Of a stretch of DNA of 64,000 nucleotides, positions 9,056 through 24,670 are shown one piece after another; position 1 is the first letter of the stretch, and every line of letters begins with the position of its first letter. The notes below the pieces were generated by a model. The model was not told where the DNA came from and searched no databases. It was given only the letters and a program-made list of their open reading frames with translations. The stretch is from positions 4,124 to 68,123 of the forward strand of contig CAYOCT010000004.1 of the NCBI GenBank assembly GCA_964402555.1, read 5' to 3'. Made by a program: the position numbers and the translations under genes. Source of the DNA: an uncultured Nitrospiraceae bacterium (lineage in GTDB: Bacteria; Hydrogenedentota; Hydrogenedentia; Hydrogenedentales; SLHB01).

Positions 9056-11251
9056 TCAAGGCTGCACAATCTCAAACGGAATCGCGGGCAGCGCTCCGAG
9101 AGGAACGCGTTGTTGCCGCCGTGCCGGCTTCGAACCTTTCGATTGCTCAGGAGGCGTCACAAAAGCCTGCACAATCAGATTGTCCGAATAGCCGGGCTTG
9201 AGCGCATCGCCGTCCGCCTTCACGCGGATCGTTACCCCAGGCGGTTCGAGCGCCGTGTCTTCGATCGCAAGGCCCTTCGGCGGATCGCAGAGTTCCCACT
9301 GCACGTCCTGTAGCTTTGGATTGCGCGGCACGCGTACGTACACGTCGGCGGAACCGCCCGCGGGTATCTTTACGGGCGCATCGCTGGCCAGCGTCACGGG
9401 CGGACCGGATCGCCGCGCCCCGCGAACCTCCGCCAGCAGCGCTTGCGACGGTGTCAGGTGCCGGTACGCGAAGGCCTGCATCAAATCCTCGCATGGCACA
9501 ACGTCACGCTGCACCGTCTCTCCCGCGACCTGGAAGCTTCCCACCACATGCAACGCGACAGGCTCCTCGAACGGTTCGCGCGGCGCGGTCAGCGTCATCA
9601 TGACCCGATCGCGGCCCGCGGGGATCGTCCCGCCGTCGAGTTGCCAGCCTTCGGGCGCGTCCTTCAGCGCCACTTCGATATCGCCGTCAAAACCGTCCCG
9701 CCGTATCGCGTAGACCGCAATCGGCGCCGAGCGCCCCGCGAGGACGTTCACGCTTGAAGGCGTCATGCGCAACGCCACGTCTGGCCTCGGCGGGCTGATA
9801 CGAAGCCGATAGGAGTACGCTTCGCCGCCTTGTCCCTGCGCGTCGCTCACGTGAACGAAATACTTGCCCGTCTTCGGCAAGGTCGCACTTACGTACGAGT
9901 CCGCCTGATGCGTCACCAACCCGAACGCCTTGTCGTCGTGGTCATCGTTCCAGGCAATCACCTTGCCGGAATCGTCGAGTAACCGCAGCACCGAATCCAT
10001 GGGCGAACCTATTCGCCGCGCGTAGACCTCGGCGACGATCGGTTCTCCTTCGTTGCCCTTGATCTCGTACACGTCCACGTCGCCCGGCGGATCGATACTG
10101 CCGTCGACGGCCACGGGCAGCTTGACGCCCTGGCTGTATTCGATGCTGTCGTTGTGTTTCTTTTCCGTGGCTGCTTCAAGCCCTTCGAGTTCCGGGACAG
10201 CAGCCGCTTGCGCCGCAGCGGACGGCTGATCCGAAACCGTAACGCGATACACGAAATCGTCGCGGCCGCGATAGATCGAGTCGCGAATTTCCACCGTGTA
10301 CACACCGTCCTCGGGCACGTCATAACACAACGCCGGGTCAGGGTCGCACGCATTGTCGTCGTCGAACGCCGCCTCGTGTCCTTCAGGGTCGTAGACCGTC
10401 AACACGGCTTGGAACCATCCGGGCACGGCGTCCGCAAGGTACGGCACCAGATGGCGCGCCTGCGCCGAGATGTACAACCGTTCGCCGCGTTTGGCTGTGA
10501 ACGTAAGCTCGTCGACATCGCCGGGCGTTACCTGTCCATTCGCCACGAACGGCACGCTGAACGGAGGATCCTCGGGGAGTACGATGGGGAGTTTCGGGTC
10601 GTTGGGTTCCTGTTCGCGCACTTCCGGCAACGTCCCCACTTCGAAACACATCGGATTGCTCAAACCCGCGCGCGTCCTGAGCCGCAGTTCGCGGTCGCCG
10701 GGCGGCGCCGACGGATCAATCGTGATCTCGATCAGCGCCATTTCGCCGATCTGCGGGTTGAGCTGCCGTTTTTTGATCTCGAGGATCTCTTTCACCAGTC
10801 CTGCAATGCCTCGCACGCTCAGGTTATCCAGATTGTCGATCAAGGGATGCGGCGGCAAGGCCACCGAATCGCCTGACGCCTTCTTGAGTTTGCCCGGACC
10901 GACACGCAAGCCGGGCAGCGTTGGCGGGGGAGGACTTCCCGGTAGTTCGGCCCATCGTTTGATCCATGCGTCGCGAATGCGGAGTTGAAGTTCGCGGCGC
11001 TCATCGGCTTTCAAGTTCCTAAGCGGAGGATAATGCTTGAGGACTTCCGCGTGAACGCCTTCGCCGGTGATATAGGCGTCCGAAATGCCGCGCAGGAACT
11101 GTCCGCCGGCCAGGATCTGAAACGTGGTTCCCGCTTGCCCGCCCGCCGGGTACACGTAACCCAAGTGCGGTTCGGTCTGGCCCCACGCGCTTGCGCATGC
11201 GGCCAGCACGGCGCCCATCCACACTCCATGCAGCGTGTGTCGTCGAATCAT
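9056..11251 (-). CDS. secreted protein with two pre-peptidase C-terminal (PPC)-type domains
   Basis: 731-aa ORF with a signal peptide (VWMGAVLAACASAWGQ). Two segments with the PPC pattern (DVDELTFTAKRGERLYISAQ...; DVDVYEIKGNEGEPIVAEVYARRIGSPMDSVLRLLDDSGKVIAWNDD). ATGA overlap with the upstream DUF1501 gene. Confidence 0.6.
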   Translation of the reverse strand: MIRRHTLHGVWMGAVLAACASAWGQTEPHLGYVYPAGGQAGTTFQILAGGQFLRGISDAYITGEGVHAEVLKHYPPLRNLKADERRELQLRIRDAWIKRWAELPGSPPPPTLPGLRVGPGKLKKASGDSVALPPHPLIDNLDNLSVRGIAGLVKEILEIKKRQLNPQIGEMALIEITIDPSAPPGDRELRLRTRAGLSNPMCFEVGTLPEVREQEPNDPKLPIVLPEDPPFSVPFVANGQVTPGDVDELTFTAKRGERLYISAQARHLVPYLADAVPGWFQAVLTVYDPEGHEAAFDDDNACDPDPALCYDVPEDGVYTVEIRDSIYRGRDDFVYRVTVSDQPSAAAQAAAVPELEGLEAATEKKHNDSIEYSQGVKLPVAVDGSIDPPGDVDVYEIKGNEGEPIVAEVYARRIGSPMDSVLRLLDDSGKVIAWNDDHDDKAFGLVTHQADSYVSATLPKTGKYFVHVSDAQGQGGEAYSYRLRISPPRPDVALRMTPSSVNVLAGRSAPIAVYAIRRDGFDGDIEVALKDAPEGWQLDGGTIPAGRDRVMMTLTAPREPFEEPVALHVVGSFQVAGETVQRDVVPCEDLMQAFAYRHLTPSQALLAEVRGARRSGPPVTLASDAPVKIPAGGSADVYVRVPRNPKLQDVQWELCDPPKGLAIEDTALEPPGVTIRVKADGDALKPGYSDNLIVQAFVTPPEQSKGSKPARRQQRVPLGALPAIPFEIVQP

Positions 11252-12585
11252 GTCAGTTCCACCAAGTCGCCGCTTCCCTTGAACGAGTCTTCCGCCTTGG
11301 GCAAGACATTCACGTCCATGCCTTTTCCGTTGGGCAGCGAACCTTCCGGGTCAATACCCAGCAGACCGTACATCGTCCGGATGAGGTCCGCGGGCGACAC
11401 CGGCCGTTCCGCGGGGAATTCGCCCTTTGCATCGGACGCGCCGACGACGCGCCCGCCCTTGAACCCACCGCCCGCGACCACCGAGCAGAAACAGTCGCCG
11501 TAATGGCTGCGCCCGCCATTCCACGGCGCGTTCCACAGTACTTTCGGCGTTCTGCCGAATTCGCCCGTCCACCAGACGATCGCGCTGTCGAGTAGGCCGC
11601 GCTCGCTCAGGTCTTGCAAGAGCGCCGCCATGCCTTTGTCCATTTCCGGCAGCTTGCGGCGCATAATCTCGAAATGCTGCTTGTGCGTGTCCCAGCCTTT
11701 GTAATTGATCGTTATGTACGGCACGCCGGTTTCGACGAGCCGCCGCGCCATCAGGCACGACTGGCCGAACGTATTGCGGCCGTACAGTTCGCGGGTCTCG
11801 TCCGATTCCTGCGTGAGATCGAACAACTTGCGCGCCTCGCCGAACATCGTTGCGTAAGCATGGTCTTCGCACTGGTTCCATTGCGCGAAATGCGGGTTGT
11901 CCGGCATGGCCTTGCCGAGCGTGTCGATCGCGTGGAGCAATTCGCGGCGGCCCATCTGCCGCTCGTCCGAAACGCCCTCCGCAACGATGCCTTCGACGAC
12001 GAACGGCTTCTTGTTCGGATCTCCGCCGGTCGCGAACGGTTTGTACCGCTGGCCGAGGAAGCCCGCTTCCGAGAAGCGCCCTTGCGGCTCGGTCAGCACG
12101 ATGTACGGCGGTACGATCCCTTGGTAGTCGTGGTCATAGCCTTTGAAATCCGCGACCACCGCGCCCACCGAAGGATACACCAGCCGGTCGGGCTTTCGTC
12201 CCGTCTGCACGATGTACGACGCCGTTTCATGCCCGTTCACGCAATGCGTCATGCTGCGGATTATCGAGTATTTGTCTGCCTGTTGCGCAAGCAGCGGCAG
12301 CAACTCGCCGATGCGAATGCCGTCGACGTTGGTGGCGATCGGTTTGTCCAGCGGCCCGCAATAGTCCCGGCCTGCGTCCGGCTTTGGATCGAAGGTGTCG
12401 AGGTGTGACGGCCCGCCCCACATCCAGATTTGGATCACCGACTTCGCCTTCGCGGGCGGCGATGCTACTTCGGCCTCCGCGGCGGCACTCTTCCGGTTCG
12501 CCAAGGCCAATCCCGCCGCGCCCAGCAACGCCCCCTTCAACGCCGTGCGGCGGCTAACTGCTTTCGAGGATACAGGTTCGATCAT
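11248..12585 (-). CDS. DUF1501 domain-containing protein (sulfatase-like fold, Tat signal)
   Basis: 445-aa ORF with a twin-arginine signal (SRRTALKGALLGAAGLALA) and the DUF1501 hallmark IQIWMWGGPSHLDTFDPKP. The family is characteristic of Planctomycetota. Confidence 0.8.
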   Translation of the reverse strand: MIEPVSSKAVSRRTALKGALLGAAGLALANRKSAAAEAEVASPPAKAKSVIQIWMWGGPSHLDTFDPKPDAGRDYCGPLDKPIATNVDGIRIGELLPLLAQQADKYSIIRSMTHCVNGHETASYIVQTGRKPDRLVYPSVGAVVADFKGYDHDYQGIVPPYIVLTEPQGRFSEAGFLGQRYKPFATGGDPNKKPFVVEGIVAEGVSDERQMGRRELLHAIDTLGKAMPDNPHFAQWNQCEDHAYATMFGEARKLFDLTQESDETRELYGRNTFGQSCLMARRLVETGVPYITINYKGWDTHKQHFEIMRRKLPEMDKGMAALLQDLSERGLLDSAIVWWTGEFGRTPKVLWNAPWNGGRSHYGDCFCSVVAGGGFKGGRVVGASDAKGEFPAERPVSPADLIRTMYGLLGIDPEGSLPNGKGMDVNVLPKAEDSFKGSGDLVELT

Positions 12586-13430: not shown

Positions 13431-15395
13431 TCAGTCCCCGCCCTTCAAAGTTACCGTGCACGTCGCGTCGTACTCGGACACAACCTCACCCGCTTTCCAT
13501 GCGCGCTTCCCGCCGATGAAATTCAGATACAGTTCGTCGGTGAATCGCGCGCGGTCGGCCTTTGTCGCGCCGCAGTAGAGGGCGCGCATCGGCTTGGGGG
13601 CCTGAATGTGAAGGACGCCGTCGACGTCGATCGAGGAAACGGTTGCTTCGATCTGCGTGCCATCGCCCGAGCGGACGACGTGACTCTCGCCACCCAGGAC
13701 GATTGATCGTTCGCCGCGCTCGTATACCCAGTGCGGGTTGTTGAGGATGCCGATAAGGCCCGTAGCGACTTCCTCCGTCTCGACGTCTTGAAGCGCGACG
13801 ATCTTCTCGCGTACGCGCCACGTGCCATCCGATTCGGAGTGAAGATCGAGCGTCGCGCGAAACATGCCGTCGCCATGATCCAGTTCCAGCGAGGCGTCGA
13901 ATCGATTCGCTTCGTCGATCACACCAACATGCCGGACATATAGAGGCAGATCGTTCTTCGCGCCCGCGAGGCGGATATGTCCGATGCCGCTACGCGCATG
14001 CGGCGAGGTCAGCCGGTCGCGTTGAAAGACGTTGATCTGCGCCATGACCTGCGCGCCCCAACTGAATGTGGCGATCACGACGGGCGTGCGATTCAGAATG
14101 ATGCGCGCGCCGTCGAGCCGCAACACGCCTGGAAGAACGGGCGGCGTGTCTGTCTCCGCTTTTCCTACTTCTGCGATGGGACCGTGGTAACGAAGCGCAA
14201 GCCACGCCATGGCGTCGTAGTAGATCAAGTCCGACAGCGTTGACGGGAAGAAGAACTCGTCGTCGAGGAAGACGGTTCCCGAGGGCGATCGCGCCTGCAT
14301 GCGTTCCTGCGTTTCGAGGCAAGGCAGCATGAGCGCCCAGCCGTCCGGGTCCCCGCCCTGAGTTGCCATGAGCAGGTGCGTGTACAGCCACTCGGGGTCG
14401 CGCAACAGTTCCCAGTCCTGCCCGTTCGGATACACGAGTCCGCCGCTTGGCAGCGAGAAGCGTTTGAGCACAGCGTAGATGCCCGCGCAGTTGTACGTTG
14501 TGGACTGCGGCGCGCGCCGCCCGCTCATCGTGAAATCGAGCAGGCACGACATCGACAACGGGAACGTGGCCATGTAGTCCGGATGCACTCGGCCGTGGTT
14601 TTCGAGCGTGAAGTCGTCGTAGATGTTCGCGCCGGTGAACTGTTCCGCCACGGTCCGCCCGTCGACAATCTCTTGCGAATGTTCGTCCGCGGGACGCAGG
14701 AAGGACGACAGCGCCCATTTCTGGAACGCCGCTTCCCACTCCGCACGCCGCGAGTCATCCGGCATAATCGTTATCGCGACCGAGAGGATCTGGCTGTTCC
14801 ACGCATTCTCTTCCGCCTTCGTATCGTCGACGATTTGGTGCGGCGGTTCGGTATGCGCGATACGGTCCGCCTCGTGGGCGACGACCTTGCGGACGGATGC
14901 ATGCAGATCCTCGGGCAGGTCGTCCCATGTCCACCATGCCGCGCGGCCGAGCATGTGCGCCCAATGCGCCGATTGCCATTGGCTGCCCCAGGATTTCCCG
15001 TCGCTCGTCGGCCGCGACCCCGTGAGATGCACCGCCGCGAGATACCGCATCATCGGGATGATCGTGTCTTGTAGCAGACGTTCCTTGGAAACGCCCACAA
15101 CCGACGCGTCGTACGGTCCGAATCGGTAGAGAAAGGCCAAGCCCGCGACGGTACCGGTGTTGGGCCGTATCCAATGCTCGTTGCTCTTGCTTTCGGTGAT
15201 CAGTTTCAGCGCCGGATCGGCGTCCCACGGGTGGACTTTGGTTAACAGATTGGACGCCTGTTTCTCGACCGACACGTACATGCGCGAGGCGATGTCTGGC
15301 GCGCTGGCCGGCGCTGGCACATCCGCCGACGGCTCAACGATGGGTAACACGTTCGTGGCCGCCGCAACCGTTAGGAGCGCGCAGAAGAGCAGCAT
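13431..15395 (-). CDS. hypothetical secreted protein (possibly polysaccharide lyase/heparinase II/III-like)
   Basis: 654-aa ORF with a signal peptide (MLLFCALLTVAAA) and Trp/His-rich segments (WGSQWQSAHWAHMLGRAAWW) reminiscent of alpha/alpha-toroid lyases. The functional call is speculative. Confidence 0.55.
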   Translation of the reverse strand: MLLFCALLTVAAATNVLPIVEPSADVPAPASAPDIASRMYVSVEKQASNLLTKVHPWDADPALKLITESKSNEHWIRPNTGTVAGLAFLYRFGPYDASVVGVSKERLLQDTIIPMMRYLAAVHLTGSRPTSDGKSWGSQWQSAHWAHMLGRAAWWTWDDLPEDLHASVRKVVAHEADRIAHTEPPHQIVDDTKAEENAWNSQILSVAITIMPDDSRRAEWEAAFQKWALSSFLRPADEHSQEIVDGRTVAEQFTGANIYDDFTLENHGRVHPDYMATFPLSMSCLLDFTMSGRRAPQSTTYNCAGIYAVLKRFSLPSGGLVYPNGQDWELLRDPEWLYTHLLMATQGGDPDGWALMLPCLETQERMQARSPSGTVFLDDEFFFPSTLSDLIYYDAMAWLALRYHGPIAEVGKAETDTPPVLPGVLRLDGARIILNRTPVVIATFSWGAQVMAQINVFQRDRLTSPHARSGIGHIRLAGAKNDLPLYVRHVGVIDEANRFDASLELDHGDGMFRATLDLHSESDGTWRVREKIVALQDVETEEVATGLIGILNNPHWVYERGERSIVLGGESHVVRSGDGTQIEATVSSIDVDGVLHIQAPKPMRALYCGATKADRARFTDELYLNFIGGKRAWKAGEVVSEYDATCTVTLKGGD

Positions 15396-15821: not shown

Positions 15822-17570
15822 CTACGCTAGCGATTCCCGGATCCATCCGAGCAGATGTCGCGCGCGAGCCGATGCGGTGTGATGGCGCCTCAAATGCTCG
15901 TGTCCCGCGTGGGCGATGCGCGCCGCTTCGTCGGGATGCGCCAGCAAGTGCTCGAGCTTCTCGCGCAATTCATCGAGGTCTTCGAAGAAGACGGCGGTTT
16001 CGCCGTCGCGGAAGTTGTGCGGGATACGAATGGGCGGCGGCTCCGAAAACAGCAGGCAGCCTTGTGCGGGGAGTTCGTAGTAGCGAACGGTGTCGAACCC
16101 CGCGCCGAAGGCGCTCAAGCCGATGCGCGCATCGCGAATACGCTGGATGTACTCGCCCGGAGGGTACACGTGATCGAAACGTTCGCCAAGAACGCTCTCG
16201 ATCGTTCGGAGGTAAACTTCGCGCAATCCCGGCCAGCGCTGCCCGGCCCAGAAGAACGCGGTGGGGCGTTCGTTCGCGATGTCGGACGCGACGCGCGCGT
16301 CAGGATGGGCGAACGGCAACGGAAATACGCGCGGCCCATAGTCAACGCACGCGAGCATCTCGCGTTTGAAGCATGCTTGCGCGCCGCCGCGCCCCATATA
16401 GGCGAGAGTCTCCCGCGAGTGATCGACACACTCGTCTTGCGCGTCGATCAAGAACAGCGGCGTCGATCCGGCAGCATCGAGGATCGCGCGCGCGGCCTCG
16501 CGTTCGAGCGCCTGTTCCATGTCACCGTAGAGGATGTAATCGAATTGGCCCTGCCGCAGTTCGGCCACGAAAGCGTCGAGGCCGAGCGGCTCGCCCGCGT
16601 GGTCGCATGCGCAGGGATAATGCGCGAGTTCCGGGGGCGGCTGGCCATGGAGCAGCGGCTTCCAGGGGAACTCGACGACGTTGGCGTCGCCAAGCACGCT
16701 GCATAGTCCATCGAACAACGCGTCGAGGCCGAAATGCGGTCGCGGGTGCGTCACCAGTAGCACGCGAGGCATGCGAGCCGGTTCGACCCAGGCGGGCGGA
16801 TCGGGTTCGACCCAAACAGAACGGACAGCCGGGTACGATTCGATCTGCCGCGCAGTGGCCGGGTTTGGCGCAACCTGCTCCGCAATGCGCAACGTCCGCG
16901 CCGCCATCGTTTCATCGCCGATGCGGCGCCAGAATTCGGACTGGCACATGTAGGCCAAATGGAAATCGGGACAGACCTCGGTAATCTGGTAGAACAACAT
17001 GAGCGACCCGCCGAACAGGAGCAGTTGCCTGCGCGGGTCGCCGGGCCGGTCCATATCGAGCAGACACTGCTGCTTCTGTGCCGCGATGGCCACTTGGGTT
17101 TCGAGACTGTCTCGATACGACTCGGGAATCTCGCACAGAATCTGGTGCGCCCATTCGGGATGGCGTTCGCTCAGACAGGACTGCGCGTGCTCGATGGGCG
17201 CGTAATCGTGCCACACCGCGACGTGAACGCCGGCCGTCTCCGGCGCTTGAAACGCCGTGTAGAGCGCAAGCCCTTCTTCGTCCAGTGCCGGTGCAAGGTC
17301 TTCGCGGTCGACGCCGCCGAGGATGAAGAAGTAGCCGTGCCGCGAGAGGAACCGCGCGAGCTTGGCGCGCTGGACTACGTCGGCGGATTCGCCGAGGATG
17401 ACGGCATCGAAATAGGCATCGGGAAATGGGACGGCCGCCGCGTTGCGGTCAAACGCGCTTAGAGTGACGCCGCGCGTTTCGAGCATGCGCGCTAGCGACG
17501 CGGGAAGTTCGCCGATTTGGAGCACGCGCCGGATGAACAACGGGATGCGGCGCGCCCAGCGGTCTTCCAT
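15822..17570 (-). CDS. fusion protein: methyltransferase-like N-terminal region plus CgeB-like/glycosyltransferase-family-1-like C-terminal domain
   Basis: 582-aa ORF. The N-terminus (AAVPFPDAYFDAVILGE...) looks like a class I MTase fragment. The C-terminus (AFFWAGQRWPGLREVY...RYYELPAQGCLLFSEPP...FRDGETAVFFEDLDELREKLEHLLAHPDEAARIAHAGHEHLRRHHT) is typical of the CgeB/DUF3880-type glycosyltransferase C-terminus. It is the last gene of the peptide operon. Confidence 0.55.
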   Translation of the reverse strand: MEDRWARRIPLFIRRVLQIGELPASLARMLETRGVTLSAFDRNAAAVPFPDAYFDAVILGESADVVQRAKLARFLSRHGYFFILGGVDREDLAPALDEEGLALYTAFQAPETAGVHVAVWHDYAPIEHAQSCLSERHPEWAHQILCEIPESYRDSLETQVAIAAQKQQCLLDMDRPGDPRRQLLLFGGSLMLFYQITEVCPDFHLAYMCQSEFWRRIGDETMAARTLRIAEQVAPNPATARQIESYPAVRSVWVEPDPPAWVEPARMPRVLLVTHPRPHFGLDALFDGLCSVLGDANVVEFPWKPLLHGQPPPELAHYPCACDHAGEPLGLDAFVAELRQGQFDYILYGDMEQALEREAARAILDAAGSTPLFLIDAQDECVDHSRETLAYMGRGGAQACFKREMLACVDYGPRVFPLPFAHPDARVASDIANERPTAFFWAGQRWPGLREVYLRTIESVLGERFDHVYPPGEYIQRIRDARIGLSAFGAGFDTVRYYELPAQGCLLFSEPPPIRIPHNFRDGETAVFFEDLDELREKLEHLLAHPDEAARIAHAGHEHLRRHHTASARARHLLGWIRESLA

Positions 17571-17571
17571 G

Positions 17572-19494
17572 TTACAGCACGTCCGTCGCGATGGTGTACA
17601 CCGCGACGTCGTGATACGCGCCGTGCAAGTACAACGCCTCGCGCTGAACGCCTGCCTGGGTGAAGCCGGCCGATTCGAGAAACGCGCGCAGCCCGGCCTC
17701 TTTCGATGACACGGGCGTCATCAACCGCCGGATCGCCTGTTGGCCGCCGGCCTCTTTCAGGATCGCGCGAAAGCCTTTGCGCACCGTGTCGGACGCGTAG
17801 TCAGCCGGGTCGCGCATGAAGATCCACGCGGTGGCCGTGCCGGGCAAGAGTTCGGGGCGCAGGCGCAGCAGGCCGAACGCCTCGCCGTTGCGCCGGGTCA
17901 GGATGAGTTCGGTCTCGATCGGGCGCGGATGCAGCGCGTCCATTTCGCGGTCGTACTTCGTGCCGAGCAAGAGGCCGCTCTCGTGGCATAGGAAATACGC
18001 CGACTCGCTCCAGTTCTCCCATTGGACCAGCATCTCGGCGTCGGCCTCTTCGATGGGCCGCATGCCGACGGTCATCGTGAGCGCCGCGCGCGCGATCGTT
18101 AAGAGCGACGGCTTGCCTCGGTGCCCGAGTTGTTTGTAGACACGCTCGAAGTTGACGCCCGAAGCCGACAGAATCTGGAACGCGGATACCGCGGCTTCCA
18201 TCCACGCGCGCTGCATGCCGCACCACGGCGCATGCGGCGTCCGGAACGAACCTGACAAAGCATGATGTACCGCGGCCGTGCCGCCTCCGCAGAGGTTGCG
18301 CGCCCAGCACGTCATGCACGCCTGCGTCGTCAGGGCGCCCATGTCATCGAATTGGCGGATGCGGCTCTCGTCGCACACGCCCTCCGCCAGCGAGCCGATG
18401 CGGAACGCGTCGATCCCTTTCATGCGAAGCGACGGATAGATGCCGCCCTGTTCGTCCACGGCCAATTCCTGCGTGCCCGCGGGATCGGAGCGGCGCAACG
18501 GCGTGCCCATGTAAATGCGGTAGAACAAGGACGCGATCGGGTCGAGGCGGAAATCGTGACGCCGCAGCAGACATTGCGCGTAATACACGGCGGAACGTTC
18601 GAGTCCCTCGAGCATGCTCTGCGGATCGAGATCGGGATGCGCGGCAAACGCGGAGTCCAGGTCGAGTTCGATAAACCCGAACCCCGCTTCGTCGAGCGCC
18701 TGCACCGCGCCGCCGTAGGAGGGATGGTCCGGGCGCACGATGATCTGCCCGACGACGCCGGGCGCGTCGGGCTGAAGGATCTTCGAGAGCCGCGCCAGCG
18801 TTTCGCCGGACGCTTTTGCGAGCGCGCGCACATGCGGCGCGGCTTCCTGCGCATCCTGAAACGCGAGGCGGACGTCGACCGTATGGCCGTTCAGAGCTTC
18901 CGGCAGCCGCGCTACGTCGAGGCCGGTCACGCGTACCGACACCGTCAGTTGTTTGCCAGCCACCTTCGCGGACTTCAGGGCAAACGCGCACAACTCCGCG
19001 ATTAGGTCGGGGTTCTCGACGCGCTTGTCCTCGACGAATTCGAGGTGCAGTTCCTTCTGCGCCTCGGAACGCGCGAGCAGCAACGCGACGGCGTCGCGCG
19101 CGAGGTCGCGGCTCGCGGGCAACGGCGCGGGAGACGTGCGTCCGAACCATTGGCGGCGCGCCTGCTCGGCCTTGGGTTCCTCGCGCGACAACGACAGCGA
19201 CATCTGTTTCACGCCGCGTTCGATATCGTAGATCTTGAGGATGTCTTCGCGTTTGGGCGTGGCGAGGATCGACTTGGTGGCTCGCAGCCACTCGAGTTCG
19301 CCGACGACTTCCTCGAGTTCCTTGCGACTATGCTTGGATTCCAGCAGACAATAGATGCGATTGACGGACGTCTGCGGATAGAGGTCCAGCACGTCCCACG
19401 AGATGGGATCGCACTCGAAACAGAAACAGCTCTCCGGGTCCATGGCGAACCGTTTGCCGTCCCGTTCGAAACGATGCAGGAACTCGCGCGGCAT
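17572..19494 (-). CDS. SPASM/twitch-type Cys-rich domain protein with a C-terminal GNAT-like domain and no canonical radical-SAM CxxxCxxC triad
   Basis: ORF 17572..20148 was trimmed to the Met at 19494 (MPREFLHRFERDGKRFAMDPESCFCFEC...), whose ATG overlaps the TGA stop of the upstream permease (ATGA). A SPASM-like motif is present: ACMTCWARNLCGGGTAAVHH...PWCGMQRAWMEA (CxxCx5CGGG). The C-terminal ~200 aa (MRPIEEADAEMLVQWENW...EALYLHGAYHDVAVYTIA) is GNAT-like. The N-terminus has only an unusual C-x-C-x2-C (CFCFEC). Confidence 0.6.
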   Translation of the reverse strand: MPREFLHRFERDGKRFAMDPESCFCFECDPISWDVLDLYPQTSVNRIYCLLESKHSRKELEEVVGELEWLRATKSILATPKREDILKIYDIERGVKQMSLSLSREEPKAEQARRQWFGRTSPAPLPASRDLARDAVALLLARSEAQKELHLEFVEDKRVENPDLIAELCAFALKSAKVAGKQLTVSVRVTGLDVARLPEALNGHTVDVRLAFQDAQEAAPHVRALAKASGETLARLSKILQPDAPGVVGQIIVRPDHPSYGGAVQALDEAGFGFIELDLDSAFAAHPDLDPQSMLEGLERSAVYYAQCLLRRHDFRLDPIASLFYRIYMGTPLRRSDPAGTQELAVDEQGGIYPSLRMKGIDAFRIGSLAEGVCDESRIRQFDDMGALTTQACMTCWARNLCGGGTAAVHHALSGSFRTPHAPWCGMQRAWMEAAVSAFQILSASGVNFERVYKQLGHRGKPSLLTIARAALTMTVGMRPIEEADAEMLVQWENWSESAYFLCHESGLLLGTKYDREMDALHPRPIETELILTRRNGEAFGLLRLRPELLPGTATAWIFMRDPADYASDTVRKGFRAILKEAGGQQAIRRLMTPVSSKEAGLRAFLESAGFTQAGVQREALYLHGAYHDVAVYTIATDVL

Positions 19495-20345
19495 CAATAG
19501 GCCCCCAGCGTCCCCTTGCTGCGGCTCCAGTTCTCGAGAATCTTGAAGAGCGAGATGCCCACGAGCGTCCAGAACACACAACTGATCATCAGAAAGTAGA
19601 ACGACGGATGCGCGAACACGGAACCGGCCACGGTTTCGCCCGCGCTGTTCACGTGGGTCTGGCCCTGGATGAGCACATATTTCAGGCAGATGGCCGCGTC
19701 GGTGATCGGCAGCGCGTGCGCCATCAAACGCCACACGATGCGCCAGCTCTCGACTTTGTCGGTCGCGAGGATCGCCAGGAACAACAACACCATCCGTACC
19801 AGAACCGCCACTTGGCCCGCTTGTTTGAACACGAGCACCAGTCCGCCGACCATGAAACCGAATCCGATCAGATTGAAATACGCCAGCCCGAGCAGCACGG
19901 CTGTGGGCACAAAATCGGCGTGGAGCGTGCCCTTGACGCTTTTCGCGATCAGCCAGATCATCAGCGCGGAACTCAGGATGTTCGTGACGGAACTCACGAT
20001 CGAGCGCGCCATAAAGTTCGTGACCAGTCCGTGCGGGCTCATGCAGAGCTGTTCGAGCTGGCCGCTCTGCGCGAGTTCTTGCAGGCCCTGCGTGAACATG
20101 CCGACGATTGCGAATGCGTACATGCCGACGATCAGGCCGAGCGCCCAATTGGTCGCGGCCTGGCCGCTGGACATAAACTTCGACGCCATCTCGTCGACCG
20201 CGGGACCGCTGGACATAACGCCGAACACCAGCAGCAACAACATGCCGTAGCCAATGAACAGGCCCGTGAGCGTGCGGAACCAGTACCGCCGCATGATGAT
20301 CCAGTTGCGGACCATCTCCGCTTTCATGACTAGAAAGAAACCCAT
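19494..20345 (-). CDS. ABC-2 type transporter permease
   Basis: 283-aa polytopic membrane protein with about six hydrophobic segments. It lies directly downstream of the ABC ATPase. Confidence 0.8.
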   Translation of the reverse strand: MGFFLVMKAEMVRNWIIMRRYWFRTLTGLFIGYGMLLLLVFGVMSSGPAVDEMASKFMSSGQAATNWALGLIVGMYAFAIVGMFTQGLQELAQSGQLEQLCMSPHGLVTNFMARSIVSSVTNILSSALMIWLIAKSVKGTLHADFVPTAVLLGLAYFNLIGFGFMVGGLVLVFKQAGQVAVLVRMVLLFLAILATDKVESWRIVWRLMAHALPITDAAICLKYVLIQGQTHVNSAGETVAGSVFAHPSFYFLMISCVFWTLVGISLFKILENWSRSKGTLGAY

Positions 20346-20397: not shown

Positions 20398-21432
20398 TCA
20401 TTCGCCCTTCCCGCTCTTGGTCAGGCGCAGGAAGACGCTTTCCAGCGACTGCTGCCGTTCGTTTATCGAGCGCAGCCCATAGCCGCGCGCGCGCAACCGC
20501 TCGACCGTGCCGTATAGCGCCTCGCTTCGGAGGTCCGTGCCGGGGTCGACCCAAATGGTCAGCACCGGCGTTTCATCCACCGTCGAAACCTGGGCGTTGC
20601 GCACGCCGGGAACATCGTCGAGATCCGATGGCTCGGGCGCGCGATCGAGTTTGAATTCGAAGACCTGGTCCGAGAAAAGTTCGAGGAGTTCCGTTTTGGG
20701 CTTGCACGCCACGAGCACGCCGTGGTTGATGATCGCGATGCGGTCGCAGATCTCCTGGGCCACGTTCATGTCGTGCGTCGTCACGAGCACGCTCTTGCCC
20801 TGCGTGCGCGTCATCTCGATGACCTTGTCCTTGATGTTCCGGCTGCTCTGCACGTCGAGTCCGGTCGTTGGTTCGTCGAGCAGCAGGACCGGCGGATCCG
20901 CGATCAGCGCGATGCAAATCGCGAGCTTCTGCTTTTCGCCGCGCGAAAGCTGGCGCACCTGGATATTCATCTTGTCTTTGAGGCCGATGAACGCGAGCAA
21001 GTCGGCCGCGCGGCCCTTCAGCACGCGCCCGCGCACGTCCTTCAGGTTGCCGTAGTAGATAAGGTTCTCCATCGGCGTGAGCGGCCAGATGCTCGTGCGC
21101 GTGCCTTCGAGCACCACGCCGACGCGTTTCAAGACCTGCAGGCGCTTCCGCTCGACGTCCATGCCGTCCACGTACACCGTGCCGCCATCGGGCTTGACGA
21201 GCCCCGAGATCATCTTCACGGTCGTCGTCTTGCCCGCGCCGTTCGGGCCGAGCAGGCCGAACACTTCTCCGGGACGAATCCCAAAACAGATGTCCTTTGC
21301 GGCGTGGACAACTTGCCGCTTGTAGAAGGAGCGCTGTCCCGTATCGGTGTCGCGCTGGAAAAAGTGATGCGTCGTGAACAGCTTGTCCACGTGGTCGATC
21401 TCAACCAGATACGATGAATCCGTCATGCGCAC
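20398..21432 (-). CDS. ABC transporter ATP-binding protein (DrrA/ABC-2 exporter type)
   Basis: 344-aa ORF with Walker A (GLLGPNGAGKTTT), the ABC signature (LSRGEKQKL), Walker B (VLLLDEPTTGLD) and an H-loop (TTHDM). Confidence 0.9.
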   Translation of the reverse strand: MRMTDSSYLVEIDHVDKLFTTHHFFQRDTDTGQRSFYKRQVVHAAKDICFGIRPGEVFGLLGPNGAGKTTTVKMISGLVKPDGGTVYVDGMDVERKRLQVLKRVGVVLEGTRTSIWPLTPMENLIYYGNLKDVRGRVLKGRAADLLAFIGLKDKMNIQVRQLSRGEKQKLAICIALIADPPVLLLDEPTTGLDVQSSRNIKDKVIEMTRTQGKSVLVTTHDMNVAQEICDRIAIINHGVLVACKPKTELLELFSDQVFEFKLDRAPEPSDLDDVPGVRNAQVSTVDETPVLTIWVDPGTDLRSEALYGTVERLRARGYGLRSINERQQSLESVFLRLTKSGKGE

Positions 21433-22316
21433 TCCACGAAACGATTTGCGGGCGCGGGCGCGGCGTCAGGCCCGCCCACGTACTCCAGGCACGCGATGCT
21501 CATAGGCAGCACGGGCAGCACCAGGAAGACCAGCAGGCGCTCGCCCTGTGTCAGTTCGGCTTCGCGGGCGGCCGCCTCTTCGCTCTCGAGTTCGTCCACC
21601 CGGATCAGGTATTCCAGAAACGCGATCTCGATATTGCGCACCGCGTGGATCACGATCACGAGGATGAGGCTTCCCGTCGCATAATACAGCGCCCCGAGCG
21701 CGATCGCGAATGCGAAGAACTCGCCCGATTGCAGCGCCGAATTCCGGAAGAAGTGCTCGTGCACGAGCGAAAACGCGATAGCCACGATCACGATGCCGAG
21801 CATGGGGCTTCCCGTCGCGGCGATGGCCAGCGGCTGCGCGCCGACGCGGTAGATGAGTTCCTCGGAAACGCTCACCACGATGAACTGCATGAGCACGCGC
21901 GGACTCTCGACGGCGAAATTCCAGAGCGATCCAAAATCGACGAAGTGCACCGCCGCCGCACTCACCGACCGTTGCGTGATCAGCAGGCTGATGCCGAAGA
22001 TGAGGTGCCCCGCGAGCAGCCCGAGGGCAATGTATACCGGGGAGATGAGATGGCGCGAAAACACGCCCATGTGGCTGCCGAAGTAACATGCCAGCGCGAA
22101 TAGCGCGCTCTGCGCGTAGGCTGCGATCACGGCGTGCCGGCGCGCCGCGCGCTGCAATCCGGTACAACACACGACCAGAAACGGCGGGATTGACAGCGTG
22201 AACGTGGCCAGCGAACCCTGGGCCTCTTGGCCGGGCTTGCCGCGCCGTGCCATCGCCATCGCGAACGCGATGTAGACGGCCAGGGCCGCGAGGAATACGG
22301 CGCCGGCGGCGTTCAC
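21423..22316 (-). CDS. CPBP family intramembrane metalloprotease (CAAX protease / Abi type)
   Basis: 297-aa polytopic ORF carrying the three CPBP motifs: EELIYR (EExxxR), FSLVHEH (FxxxH) and HAVRN (HxxxN). It overlaps the start of the ABC ATPase gene by 10 nt. Confidence 0.8.
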   Translation of the reverse strand: MNAAGAVFLAALAVYIAFAMAMARRGKPGQEAQGSLATFTLSIPPFLVVCCTGLQRAARRHAVIAAYAQSALFALACYFGSHMGVFSRHLISPVYIALGLLAGHLIFGISLLITQRSVSAAAVHFVDFGSLWNFAVESPRVLMQFIVVSVSEELIYRVGAQPLAIAATGSPMLGIVIVAIAFSLVHEHFFRNSALQSGEFFAFAIALGALYYATGSLILVIVIHAVRNIEIAFLEYLIRVDELESEEAAAREAELTQGERLLVFLVLPVLPMSIACLEYVGGPDAAPAPANRFVECA

Positions 22317-22966
22317 CGCGAAGGCTCCGGCGCATCGGCGCCCAAGGCGGCCACGGCCTGCCGGTCCTCGACCATCGAACGGAACAAGGTCCCCGTGGCC
22401 GCGGCGTGTTTCTGGCGGAATGCGTCAAACTCCGAACGCAACAGGCCGTATCCGTATACGTCGAACAACTCGCCGTCGCGCGCGACGTGCCGCGGCAGCG
22501 TGAGTTCCCGCGTCGCGCCAACCTTCTCGATGATGCGCCACGAGGCCGTGTTAAACGCATAGATAAACGCGGCGACGCGGTGCAGGTTCAGTTCGTCGAA
22601 GCAGTACTCCATGGCCCGGAAGAACGCGATGCCCGTCACGAGGCGGTTGCGCAATTTCTTGTTGCCGATGTAGAGGTCGATCGAACACGCGCGGTTGCGC
22701 CAGCTCAGGTTCTGCAACGAGAACAGCCCCACCGCGCCGTAGTCGGGCGAATCGATCATGAGATAGATGCCGCCGGGAAGCGTCTGCCCCGTCGAACGGC
22801 CCAGCATCGTGATCACGTGCTCGCGGATTTGCTTAGGCGAGCGCGCCGGGTCGCCGTAGAGAAAGCGCAGGAAATCCTCGTCCTCCATCCACGCGACCAC
22901 TGTGTCCAAGTCGTCGCGTTCGGCGCGGCGCAGATAGGTTCTACTCGTGAGGGGCATGCTCGGCAC
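22313..22966 (-). CDS. GNAT family N-acetyltransferase
   Basis: 217-aa ORF with a GNAT fold pattern (LRRAERDDLDTVVAWMEDEDF... RNRLVTGIAFFRAMEYCFDELNLHRVAAFIYAFNTASWRIIEKVGATRE). ATGA overlap with the CPBP gene. Confidence 0.75.
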   Translation of the reverse strand: MPSMPLTSRTYLRRAERDDLDTVVAWMEDEDFLRFLYGDPARSPKQIREHVITMLGRSTGQTLPGGIYLMIDSPDYGAVGLFSLQNLSWRNRACSIDLYIGNKKLRNRLVTGIAFFRAMEYCFDELNLHRVAAFIYAFNTASWRIIEKVGATRELTLPRHVARDGELFDVYGYGLLRSEFDAFRQKHAAATGTLFRSMVEDRQAVAALGADAPEPSR

Positions 22967-23519
22967 TCCGTGTTCCCGTCCCGGCCTCGGACGCCGCTAC
23001 GGGACGAAACAGCGACAACGTTTCCGCATTATGCCACCGGCCCAGCGTATAGGTCACCTCGCGCTGCACGCCGTTGCTGGCGAACCCGCGCGCGCGAAGG
23101 AACCCAAGCAGGGCCGTCTCGGAATCCATGGCGTGCGCAATAACTTTGTGCAGTTGCTGCTGGGTGAAGGCCTGCCACAGCAAGAACGCAAGCGCCTCTT
23201 CCGCGACCGGACCCTCGTAGTCGGCGGCATCCGATAGCATAATCACGACTTCGCCGTAACGGGCTTCGGTGTTGATGGAGCGAAGCGTGCAGAACCCGCG
23301 AACCATGCCGTCGTGGGTTTCGACCGCGTACATCAACGGGCGTCCCATTTCCTTCTGGGCCAGCACTTCGCGCAGTTCGTCGCACGTGGGAAAGATAGGC
23401 TCGCGGCGATGGTCCATCAGGCAGCAGCGCGGACAGAGCGGATCGTAATAAACATGCATCGCCACGGCGTCGTCAGGTTCCGCGGCGCGGATGATCGTAT
23501 GTTCCCCTCGGATCATGGC
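22941..23519 (-). CDS. GNAT family N-acetyltransferase (RimJ/RimL-like)
   Basis: Part of ORF 22941..23597. The GNAT core (IRAAEPDDAVAMHVYYDP ... GFCTLRSINTEARYGEVVIMLSDAADYEGPVAEEALAFLLWQAFTQQQLHKVIAHAMDSETALLGFLRARGF) is clear. The start is ambiguous: Met 23597 or the internal MIRGEHT at 23519. Confidence 0.7.
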   Translation of the reverse strand, partial: AMIRGEHTIIRAAEPDDAVAMHVYYDPLCPRCCLMDHRREPIFPTCDELREVLAQKEMGRPLMYAVETHDGMVRGFCTLRSINTEARYGEVVIMLSDAADYEGPVAEEALAFLLWQAFTQQQLHKVIAHAMDSETALLGFLRARGFASNGVQREVTYTLGRWHNAETLSLFRPVAASEAGTGTRSAEHAPHE

Positions 23520-23646
23520 GAACGTCCCATACCTCAGGAGTTCCCCCCACCGGCCCAATGGGGGAACGGCCGGACTCGGCTGCCTGAGAAAAAACACGCC
23601 GGGACTTCAAGCTCTGGAGCCCCGGCGCCGAACGTAGTCCTTCGGC

Positions 23647-23826
23647 TTACCCAATACTGAGTTCGTTCTTCTTCTGTACAACGAAGTCCCCGAACGCCTT
23701 CCAGATCGCGTTAAGGAAATCGCTCTTGGCATCGGCAAAGTCAGGTTCCGCACGGAACGCGCCGCCCGCGCGGCGGGTGGCCATTCTGGAACGGACAACC
23801 GAGACTTTTCCTAAATGTTTCATCAT
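23647..23826 (-). CDS. small peptide A (59 aa; MMKHLGKVSVVRSRMATRRAGGAFRAEPDFADAKSDFLNAIWKAFGDFVVQKKNELSIG), divergent member of the tandem MKH[LV]-peptide family
   Basis: Internal Met of ORF 23647..23865. On the coding strand GGAGACAT sits directly 5' of ATGATGAAACATTTA, giving a strong SD. It shares only the MKHL N-terminus with peptides B-D and lacks their hydrophobic Pro-containing C-terminal segment; its C-terminal half instead looks amphipathic and helical. Confidence 0.5.
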   Translation of the reverse strand: MMKHLGKVSVVRSRMATRRAGGAFRAEPDFADAKSDFLNAIWKAFGDFVVQKKNELSIG

Positions 23827-23952: not shown

Positions 23953-24102
23953 TCAGGTTACGATGGTCAGCTTCGCCGACAGGATCGGCTTCAGGGCGCT
24001 CAGTACGGCCACAACGAAATCGACGACCAGAGTCCAAGGGAATGAGGTGGTCTCAGTGGTGGCGTGGCTTGGGGTCCGGGTGATACTGCGAACGTGCTTC
24101 AT
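23953..24102 (-). CDS. small peptide B (49 aa; MKHVRSITRTPSHATTETTSFPWTLVVDFVVAVLSALKPILSAKLTIVT)
   Basis: Internal Met of ORF 23953..24174, with AACGGAGGAAACATTGTTATG (SD GGAGGA, 9-nt spacer). It is a paralog of peptides C and D: a hydrophilic N-terminal ~22 aa followed by a ~25-aa hydrophobic segment with a central AL(K/A/V)PI(L/V) motif. Confidence 0.55.
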   Translation of the reverse strand: MKHVRSITRTPSHATTETTSFPWTLVVDFVVAVLSALKPILSAKLTIVT

Positions 24103-24271: not shown

Positions 24272-24424
24272 TCAGCTCGCCGTTTCCGAAGGCTTCAGCG
24301 CCACTACCGCGCTCAGAATGGGCGCCAGCGCCGCCAGAATCTGCAGGAACAGCGTGAGTCCGTCCAGCGGGCTCTGCTCGAACCACGTCAACTCGGCCTT
24401 CGATATGGGCTTGAGATGTTTCAT
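24272..24424 (-). CDS. small peptide C (50 aa; MKHLKPISKAELTWFEQSPLDGLTLFLQILAALAPILSAVVALKPSETAS)
   Basis: Internal Met of ORF 24272..24499. A purine-rich GGAAGGA lies ~12 nt upstream. The first ~30 nt of its coding sequence align with those of peptide D (atgaaRcatctSaaRccSatMtcgaaggcSsagt). Confidence 0.55.
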   Translation of the reverse strand: MKHLKPISKAELTWFEQSPLDGLTLFLQILAALAPILSAVVALKPSETAS

Positions 24425-24520: not shown

Positions 24521-24670
24521 CTACTCGGCCGGCTGCTTCTTCGTGGCCGATGCGTCCAGAATCAGGGTCACGATGGGCACCAGCGCCGTGACCATCGAGG
24601 TAATCAGCGTGATGATATCGGTCGTCGACACGCTCGACTGCGCCTTCGAGATCGGTTTCAGATGCTTCAT
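24521..24670 (-). CDS. small peptide D (49 aa; MKHLKPISKAQSSVSTTDIITLITSMVTALVPIVTLILDASATKKQPAE)
   Basis: Internal Met of ORF 24521..24769, with AAAGGAAATCCAACGAACATG upstream. It is the first gene of the minus-strand operon. A ~320-bp divergent promoter region lies upstream. Confidence 0.55.
   Translation of the reverse strand: MKHLKPISKAQSSVSTTDIITLITSMVTALVPIVTLILDASATKKQPAE

Follow-up and report, generated by a model that had tools for sequence, protein, structure and literature searches.

The subject of this analysis is a gene on the minus strand (17572..19494, hereafter the target gene) of a 64,000-nucleotide stretch of contig CAYOCT010000004.1 (GenBank assembly GCA_964402555.1, positions 4,124 to 68,123; hereafter the window), which encodes a 640-residue fusion of a recognition element (RRE) for peptides that are made on the ribosome and modified after translation (RiPPs), a radical S-adenosylmethionine (SAM) barrel devoid of its cluster, one half of a SPASM domain and a GNAT domain. 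We favour, with moderate confidence and on the grounds of sequence comparison, the reading that this protein (the window protein) descends from a CteB-like SCIFF/ranthipeptide maturase, that its radical chemistry was lost, and that it would now be reused as a substrate-docking scaffold feeding its own GNAT domain. An earlier note on the same DNA had likewise proposed a scaffold instead of an active enzyme, and the homology to CteB, the replaced cysteine triad and SAM motifs, and the conserved RRE all agree with such a putative function.

The target gene runs from an ATG at 19494 to a TAA at 17574..17572. The open reading frame (ORF) lister puts its start further upstream (TTG at 20148); we take ATG 19494 as the start because more than 100 homologues of ~640 residues begin at the same MP(R)E.LHRF. 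Among the relatives recovered by sequence search (316 proteins with E <= 1e-3, the best 120 of which were examined) nearly all are ~640 residues long and share 50-66 % identity with the window protein, which, to judge from these alignments, is a member of a conserved family and not a product of chance. In the databases such relatives go by the names 'SPASM domain-containing protein', 'GNAT family N-acetyltransferase' and 'radical SAM protein with 4Fe4S-binding SPASM domain', and in the full-text literature we found no published account of a cluster-less SPASM-GNAT fusion or of the target operon.

Pfam alone would leave the protein unexplained, and its identity emerged from NCBIfam and from a profile search of the PDB. 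The profile (alignment A1) was built from 21 family members, i.e. the window protein and 20 homologues, and matched CteB (5WGG/5WHY), the thioether-forming SCIFF maturase of Clostridium thermocellum, with an E-value of 1.9e-38 (query residues 4-435 on CteB residues 5-445), the only solved radical-SAM structure among the 25 PDB matches listed. Foldseek, run with an AlphaFold model of the window protein (mean predicted local distance difference test score, pLDDT, of 78), placed CteB (5why/5wgg) as the top three PDB matches (E 5e-18) among the 50 best fold matches listed. By profile and by model alike, the window protein is a full-length homologue of CteB across RRE, barrel and SPASM domain. In NCBIfam, partial matches to the SCIFF maturase, QhpD, PapB and nif11 maturase models (E 1e-18 to 1e-22, residues ~128-449) all start past the position of the cluster-binding loop of the matched enzymes; the window protein scores 79.9 bits against the SCIFF maturase equivalog TIGR03974, under its cut-off of 425, and so falls outside the SCIFF maturases proper.

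The degenerate radical-SAM (beta/alpha) barrel (residues 131-335; 18490..19104, minus strand) is modelled with a pLDDT mostly above 90, and the region in which the earlier note saw a loose resemblance to a degenerate TIM-barrel core is, by profile and Foldseek, homologous to the CteB barrel; the string VSVRVTG that it had singled out stands in exact register with FTLTTNG, the ribose motif of CteB. Ahead of the barrel, the place of the CxxxCxxC loop is taken by a Cys-free linker (residues 91-130; 19105..19224, minus strand), onto which the CteB segment HISHDCNLRCKYCFA aligns. The radical-SAM cluster of CteB is held by C104, C108 and C111 (PMC10177961). All three counterparts in the window protein, in an alignment with CteB and active relatives, are non-Cys residues, which answers the substitution check that the earlier note had called for. 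No part of the protein is less conserved than the linker (invariant columns, 2 of 40; mean identity of the 20 homologues to the window protein, 33 %), which is variable in length at residues ~100-125 and has a pLDDT below 50 at 107-125. The absence of a CxxxCxxC triad, noted by eye, was confirmed over the whole 640-residue protein, and Pfam PF04055 (Radical_SAM) gave no match even at E <= 10. The SAM-binding motifs were replaced too: CteB FFGGEP reads EFVEDK in the window protein (GGE motif), TLTTNG reads SVRVTG (ribose motif) and LSIDG reads RLAFQ (SIDG motif). Hence, the traits of the radical-SAM superfamily are represented by the barrel fold, with the triad and the SAM-binding motifs gone, and from its sequence we predict that the protein is incapable of canonical SAM binding or cleavage.

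The SPASM domain (residues 336-445; 18160..18489, minus strand) keeps the ligands of auxiliary cluster 2 only. It scores 31.6 bits against TIGR04085 (SPASM, NCBIfam; cut-off 27 bits) over residues 339-423, which bears out the SPASM assignment of the earlier note, and gives no match to Pfam PF13186 (SPASM), the model proposed there for the check, even at E <= 10. In CteB, auxiliary cluster 1 is ligated by C344, C362 and C413, and auxiliary cluster 2 by C400, C403, C409 and C432 (PMC10177961). The former positions correspond in the window protein to a gap, S355 and T406, and the latter to C393, C396 and C402 (codons 18318-18316, 18309-18307 and 18291-18289, minus strand; all three within ACMTCWARNLCGGG) and C425 (codon 18222-18220, minus strand; within PWCGMQRAWMEA), each of them invariant in 21/21 aligned sequences. 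Four of the seven cysteines of a complete SPASM set remain. Twitch domains are truncated SPASM domains that keep the first auxiliary cluster only; a twitch identity was rejected, and with it the 'SPASM/twitch' label given earlier, since the surviving ligand set is that of CteB auxiliary cluster 2 and not of cluster 1, the reverse of a twitch domain.

A single fully Cys-ligated [4Fe-4S] site (auxiliary cluster 2) is therefore predicted to have been kept, its iron-sulfur loading being putative. What SPASM auxiliary clusters do continues to be debated (PMC10177961), and the retention of this one, under strict selection, after the loss of the radical-SAM cluster and of auxiliary cluster 1 argues for a radical-independent role (structural or sensing, for instance). 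In CteB, auxiliary cluster 1 touches a substrate cysteine (PMC10177961), and its loss in the window protein fits the Cys-free substrates described below; the fit is qualified by GNAT-fused members that keep auxiliary cluster 1 and likewise have Cys-free precursors.

At the N-terminus lies the RRE (a PqqD-like winged helix, residues 1-90; 19225..19494, minus strand), which aligns with CteB residues 5 to ~95 and for which DSSP on the model gave three strands followed by three helices (E7-11, E14-18, E25-28, H30-38, H44-51, H57-72). It is the best-conserved domain of the protein (26 of 90 columns invariant, mean majority-residue frequency of 0.73), as expected if leader binding is the retained function. 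The alignment pairs it with the CteB RRE, and the co-encoded peptides start with MKH[ILV][KR], comparable in sequence to the MKHIKILN of the CteB substrate CteA. The strings quoted in the earlier note (ESCFCFEC, VSVRVTGLDVARLPEALNGH and the two SPASM strings) were all recovered. The first of them, which had been pointed out as an odd N-terminal CxCxxC, holds C23, C25 and C28 on strand beta3 of the RRE, where the CteB counterpart reads GAVHVV; within the main clade, C23 and C25 never vary and C28 is conserved at ~95 %. Among divergent GNAT-fused members, P0157 has none of these cysteines (SFVFELD) and P0159 and P0163 have one each, for which reason the motif is not a family-wide substitute cluster. 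The CxCxxC is real, then, and was rejected as a replacement SAM cluster, given its place on RRE beta3 and its want of conservation in the divergent members; the active relative P0169, treated below, already has one beta3 cysteine (SICFEAD).

The C-terminal part (residues 473-640; 17575..18078, minus strand) is a RimL/RimJ/SpeG-like GNAT domain. The GNAT assignment made earlier was borne out by the AlphaFold model, which shows the GNAT fold in full, the Pfam score being borderline. Over the C-terminal ~170 residues, Foldseek returned SpeG, RimL, RimJ, YdaF and related GNATs (E ~1e-8, target template-modelling scores 0.64-0.79, those for SpeG, RimL and RimJ being given as 0.7-0.76), and the family profile matched RimL and YdaF in the PDB at E 3e-4. 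The domain has 29 invariant columns (including E482, E483, D485, E493, Y514, R516, E517, H522, Y566, R572 and R618), and the many invariant polar residues among them imply that it is under functional constraint. In tblastn, the stand-alone acetyltransferase GNAT_A of the same operon matches it at 27-36 % identity, on which ground we regard the fused GNAT domain as a paralogue of GNAT_A.

The wider family splits along the same lines. An exhaustive hidden Markov model (HMM) search of 1.84 billion representatives produced 3651 matches with E <= 1e-3 (73 of them at E <= 1e-30), and Cys motifs were examined in the 150 best of these. Among these, every GNAT-fused member of ~600-680 residues (~40 clusters at 50 % identity) is without CxxxCxxC. 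The nearest relatives, of ~450-530 residues (E 1e-45 to 1e-23), match the SCIFF maturase model best in NCBIfam; with the exception of P0252 they carry CxxxCxxC around residue 100, and nearly all of them show the full CxxCx5Cx3C. P0157, P0159 and P0163 stand in between: they are GNAT-fused and have neither radical-SAM triad nor GGE, yet they retain all three auxiliary cluster 1 cysteines and thus the whole set of seven SPASM cysteines. On the basis of these intermediates, the likely order of events, as read from the alignments, is GNAT fusion together with loss of the radical-SAM site, after which the main clade lost auxiliary cluster 1 as well.

Two further proteins deserve mention in their own right. 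P0252 (484 residues) has no GNAT domain, triad or auxiliary cluster 1 cysteines, but its GGEP and its cysteines for auxiliary cluster 2 are still in place; it seems that this lineage gave up the radical-SAM cluster on more than one occasion. P0201 (656 residues) combines a weak PqqD match (RRE), a CxxxCxxC-less barrel and every cysteine of the SPASM set with a Peptidase_S24-like fusion, and looks like an independent second dead radical-SAM scaffold with a different catalytic partner, its S24 domain being possibly a leader peptidase.

Upstream of the target gene, the window holds four tandem small ORFs of 49-58 residues on the minus strand, each starting with MKH followed by L or V, which we consider precursor peptides: peptide 1 (24521..24670, 49 residues, MKHLKPISKAQSSVSTTDIITLITSMVTALVPIVTLILDASATKKQPAE), peptide 2 (24272..24424, 50 residues, MKHLKPISKAELTWFEQSPLDGLTLFLQILAALAPILSAVVALKPSETAS), peptide 3 (23953..24102, 49 residues, MKHVRSITRTPSHATTETTSFPWTLVVDFVVAVLSALKPILSAKLTIVT) and peptide 4 (23647..23823, 58 residues, MKHLGKVSVVRSRMATRRAGGAFRAEPDFADAKSDFLNAIWKAFGDFVVQKKNELSIG), the last being of a 'KKNE' type with orthologues in most loci. 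They are the only small ORFs starting with M[KR]H[ILVM] in all six frames of the window. Across loci we collected 88 distinct precursors with a strict leader, the consensus of which reads M, K/R, H, I/L/V, R/K, any residue, I/V/L and S/T, followed by P/R/K-A-x-A at positions 11-14 (e.g., MKHLKPISKAQSS). A GGAG-type ribosome-binding site was found a few bases upstream of many of the inspected ORFs. The cores are hydrophobic or amphipathic helices, and 66 of the 88 precursors (AKE, KKNE and SK(T/N)P types) have their last Lys at a distance of 5-9 residues from the C-terminus; throughout the phylum, conservation is high in the 'KKNE' type (e.g., MKHIKPITTTKADAFTNFMNAVWRAWQDFRYEKKNELAK). As 72 of the 88 have no Cys at all, they depart from the six-Cys pattern of SCIFF substrates.

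A third precursor type, starting MRH..(L/V)SKRPERAQ, was seen upstream of GNAT genes in seven loci (L051, L052, L062, L064, L070, L087 and L008) and has no copy in the window. It features two conserved cysteines, C-x(5-7)-SD(Y/F/L)Q-x(2)-LCF, which may form a disulfide.

The leaders recall those of ranthipeptide-type systems. In the CteA fragment that was crystallised together with CteB the sequence is MKHIKILNGSTLKDSLKKGGC, with the leader start MKHIKILN, and the precursors beside P0169 read MKHIKLLNKKKENLPEEACWWVDYC..., with the leader MKHIKLLN and Cys-rich cores. An NCBIfam scan of eight precursors at E <= 10 retrieved no family, the SCIFF model TIGR03973 included, and a phmmer search of one precursor against the PDB gave no match; because TIGR03973 fails to detect the precursors, the likeness to the CteA leader is confined to the first 5-8 residues. 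Considering that this leader start is shared with CteA and with the precursors beside P0169, and the gene cassette described below with the P0169 locus, we regard the operon as a derivative of a ranthipeptide-type cluster. According to the sequences, cysteines would have disappeared from its peptides and the radical machinery from its maturase, while GNATs would have been added.

In the window, the operon (minus strand throughout) begins with the four precursor ORFs and proceeds through GNAT_A, GNAT_B, a CPBP protease, an ABC transporter ATPase and a permease to the target gene, which comes last. GNAT_A (22941..23516; PF13302, 35 bits) probably starts at the MIRGEH of 23516, as its orthologues begin with MI.G.H (the ORF lister gives a GTG at 23597). 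GNAT_B (22313..22966) is a stand-alone acetyltransferase of the Acetyltransf_3 type (PF13302, E 1.9e-18, 67.9 bits) whose best PDB match is 6erd, and its LRNRLVTG resembles the MRGRSIGK of this crystallised Bacillus cereus acetyltransferase (6ERD). The CPBP/Rce1-like intramembrane protease (21423..22316, start codon uncertain) scores 48 bits against PF02517 (cut-off 22.4) and displays the motifs EELIYR, FSLVHE and HAVRN. It is followed by the DrrA-like ABC transporter ATPase (20398..21432; PF00005 E 4e-29, TIGR01188 E 1e-68) and by the ABC-2-type permease (19494..20345, 283 residues), orthologues of which match ABC2_membrane_3 or ABC2_membrane. The translational coupling to an ABC permease claimed in the earlier note was observed, the permease stop and the target ATG overlapping as TGATG; the one-base overlap recurs in five of the six related loci with gene calls, the remaining one (L007) having a 19-nt gap.

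The arrangement is strongly conserved. The same operon order was found in every related locus with gene calls, including those of the divergent members that keep auxiliary cluster 1. A scan of GTDB species representatives for the target gene yielded 79 loci, nearly all from metagenome-assembled genomes of Candidatus Hydrogenedentota and a few with other labels; among the 47 with at least 5.2 kb of DNA upstream of the target, to which the synteny count was restricted, all five upstream genes were present in the same order and strand in 41, and the permease was detected in all 47. Some orthologue loci (50-64 % identity, identical synteny) are titled 'uncultured Nitrospiraceae/Nitrospirales', 'Bathyarchaeia archaeon' or 'Robiginitomaculum sp.', and these contigs probably derive from Hydrogenedentota and were mis-binned or mislabelled. 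In three loci (L002, L004, L005) the operon lies directly downstream of the genes for the large and small subunits of glutamate synthase, a conserved position that suggests vertical inheritance within the phylum and not a mobile bacteriocin island. One of them (L004, 3694-5387) has three stand-alone GNATs, the extra copy being GNAT_A-like, and hence the number of GNATs varies in an otherwise fixed operon.

Beyond the 3' end, a 582-residue ORF (15822-17570, minus strand; C-terminal Glyco_trans_1_2, weak N-terminal methyltransferase-like signal) begins 1 nt past the target stop. It was rejected as a part of the system, as only one of the related loci (L013) shares it, and it appears to be a lineage-specific addition at the operon's 3' end. 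A 654-residue ORF further downstream (13431-15395, minus strand), present in none of the related loci, was rejected likewise; this ORF and one of 731 residues (9056-11251, minus strand) gave no Pfam or NCBIfam match, and both adjoin a DUF1501 gene at 11248-12585.

Taken together, these genes lead us to infer how the peptide would be bound and acylated, from which donor, on which residue and in what sequence of steps, as follows. The RRE would bind the conserved leader of the precursors, the leader strand pairing with RRE beta3 as CteA does on CteB, and the dead barrel and the SPASM domain, the latter kept together by its auxiliary cluster 2 [4Fe-4S], would hold the core peptide. The fused GNAT domain, probably along with GNAT_A and GNAT_B, would acylate the peptide, either at the amine of the N-terminus or at the conserved Lys 5-9 residues from the C-terminus, after which the CPBP protease and the translationally coupled ABC-2 exporter would process and export the product. 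A farther-reaching version, which we put forward only tentatively, is that of an undescribed peptide class spanning the phylum Hydrogenedentota, in which a three-GNAT acylation machine, built around the fossil maturase as its leader-binding core, would modify Cys-free amphipathic peptides at the conserved C-proximal Lys or at the newly formed N-terminus, maybe from a non-CoA donor given the atypical motif A of the fused GNAT and of GNAT_A, with auxiliary cluster 2 in a structural or a redox/O2-sensing role.

Several observations weigh against acyl transfer by a docking scaffold. The window protein reaches 23.0 bits with Acetyltransf_4, just below the Pfam cut-off of 24.3 (which the relatives P0159, with 39.7 bits, and P0157, with 30.2 bits, do pass), and the pyrophosphate loop that binds acetyl-CoA in GNATs (Q/R-x-x-G-x-G/A) is absent, the FQGQGI of RimL being replaced by ADYASD; with such an atypical motif A, the fused GNAT may use another acyl donor or may be non-catalytic. 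Moreover, the similar genomic position in several genomes and the near-universal presence in the phylum suit a housekeeping role better than a fast-evolving bacteriocin. The protein could, accordingly, be a non-catalytic chaperone or export adaptor, whose RRE only captures the leader peptides and passes them on to the CPBP protease and to the ABC-2 exporter, and whose GNAT domain is a pseudo-enzyme that serves the stand-alone GNATs as a binding or oligomerisation module. Besides the non-canonical motif A (ADYA for QGQG), it is favoured by the translational link to the permease, seen in the window and in five of the six related loci with gene calls, and GNAT_B, a far stronger Acetyltransf_3 match with a motif region like that of 6erd, could be the real catalyst. 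We nonetheless consider it rather unlikely, as 29 invariant GNAT columns, many of them polar, exceed what a docking module would be expected to need, and as GNAT_A likewise lacks the pyrophosphate loop: the ADY(A/E) motif is common to the orthologues of the fused GNAT and of GNAT_A, and so appears a family trait more than decay. Microcin C is rendered harmless by RimL-family GNATs, MccE among them, and CPBP proteins and ABC-2 exporters are classic components of bacteriocin immunity; a self-immunity enzyme, in which an RRE-guided GNAT acetylates the intracellular peptide and thereby protects the producer in an MccE-like manner, would account for the proximity of the GNAT domain to the RimL/RimJ/SpeG group, for the CPBP/ABC-2 cassette and for peptides that look like amphipathic, membrane-active helices. 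Its probability seems to us small, given that three GNAT paralogues in fixed order beside the precursors suit biosynthesis better and that the peptides labelled type B are highly conserved throughout the phylum, unlike what toxin-immunity arms races produce.

Two other explanations strike us as very improbable. The near-invariance of C23, C25 and C28 in the main clade and the strict retention of auxiliary cluster 2 could be taken for a residual radical or redox enzyme, working through a C23/C25/C28 site (Dph2-type or otherwise atypical) or through electron transfer by auxiliary cluster 2; these three cysteines, however, sit on RRE beta3 and are absent or reduced in P0157, P0159 and P0163, the GGE, ribose and SIDG motifs are all gone, and the substrates are without the cysteines that thioether chemistry requires. 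Similarly, the SpeG-type polyamine acetyltransferases among the best structural matches of the GNAT domain could point to an acetyltransferase of small molecules that carries an Fe-S sensing module and is unrelated to peptides, the small ORFs being then spurious. Hardly any weight can be given to this, in view of the 88 distinct strict-leader ORFs (many of those inspected with a ribosome-binding site), of the window holding no such ORFs other than the operon's four, of the RRE being the most conserved domain, and of the active relative at locus L009, where the same cassette accompanies obvious Cys-rich RiPP precursors. The descent from a CteB-like maturase, with a scaffold role in peptide acylation, thus stays the reading that we favour.

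If the farther-reaching version is true, this would be the first natural SPASM auxiliary cluster kept after radical chemistry had been abandoned, isolating the role of auxiliary cluster 2. The family offers a tractable protein in which this cluster can be studied apart from such chemistry. The favoured reading would also imply that an entire maturase fold can find new use as the leader-binding scaffold of a different, fused enzyme, and that the genome-mining rule by which 'SPASM protein' equals 'radical chemistry' will mispredict clusters of this kind. The operon points to conserved, modified amphipathic peptides in the uncultured phylum Hydrogenedentota.

Among known systems, the SCIFF maturases CteB and Tte1186 (TIGR03974; 5WGG/5WHY) are alike in the succession of RRE, barrel and SPASM domain, in the cysteines of auxiliary cluster 2 and in the MKHIK leader start that the peptides of the target operon share with CteA. 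They differ in that the window protein has no triad, SAM motifs or auxiliary cluster 1 ligands and carries an extra GNAT domain, and in that SCIFF substrates contain six Cys whereas the peptides of the target operon are Cys-poor. The closest active relative is P0169 (locus L009), an uncharacterised radical SAM/SPASM maturase and the top non-family match of the exhaustive search (170 bits), the locus of which has the same cassette of CPBP protease, ABC ATPase and ABC-2 permease next to precursors with MKHIK leaders. In contrast to the window protein, P0169 has an intact CxxxCxxC, GGE and full SPASM cysteines, and its locus is without GNAT domain or GNAT genes and encodes peptides with Cys-rich cores.

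To our knowledge, Elp3 is the only well-known protein to join a radical-SAM fold to a GNAT domain at the C-terminus. Its cluster is intact, it has neither RRE nor SPASM domain, and it acts on tRNA (wobble-uridine modification). No Elp3 structure occurs among the 25 PDB sequence matches or the 50 best fold matches listed, and an Elp3-like origin was rejected for this lack of similarity, the triad being absent as well; the resemblance is one of convergent domain pairing. As for GNATs that tailor RiPPs, the microviridin MdnD, the goadsporin GodH and the goadvionin GdvG N-acylate ribosomal peptides, and we know of none that is fused to a radical-SAM/SPASM fossil. Lipidating GNATs act in the RiPP clusters of the selidamides, too (PMC8784127). 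Compared with such RiPP-tailoring GNATs, the fused GNAT and GNAT_A of the target operon stand apart by their atypical motif A.

Stand-alone 'grasp-with-spasm' SPASM proteins (TIGR04193) are not known to have a radical-SAM domain. They co-occur with graspetides (PMC8939145, PMC13097080), and like the window protein they place a SPASM-type domain without a working radical-SAM site in a RiPP context. The window protein differs from them by its fossil barrel, by the retention of auxiliary cluster 2 only and by its GNAT fusion, and gave no match to TIGR04193 in the NCBIfam scan. A functional parallel comes from inactive, RRE-bearing RiPP partners that present the peptide, such as the E1-like/Ocin-ThiF-like partners of YcaO cyclodehydratases and PqqD with PqqE. 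In these too, a degenerate fold or small domain is kept to bind the leader and to present the core to another catalyst, whereas the scaffold of the window protein is a radical-SAM barrel, with an Fe-S site that has been kept and a putative catalytic partner to which it is covalently fused.

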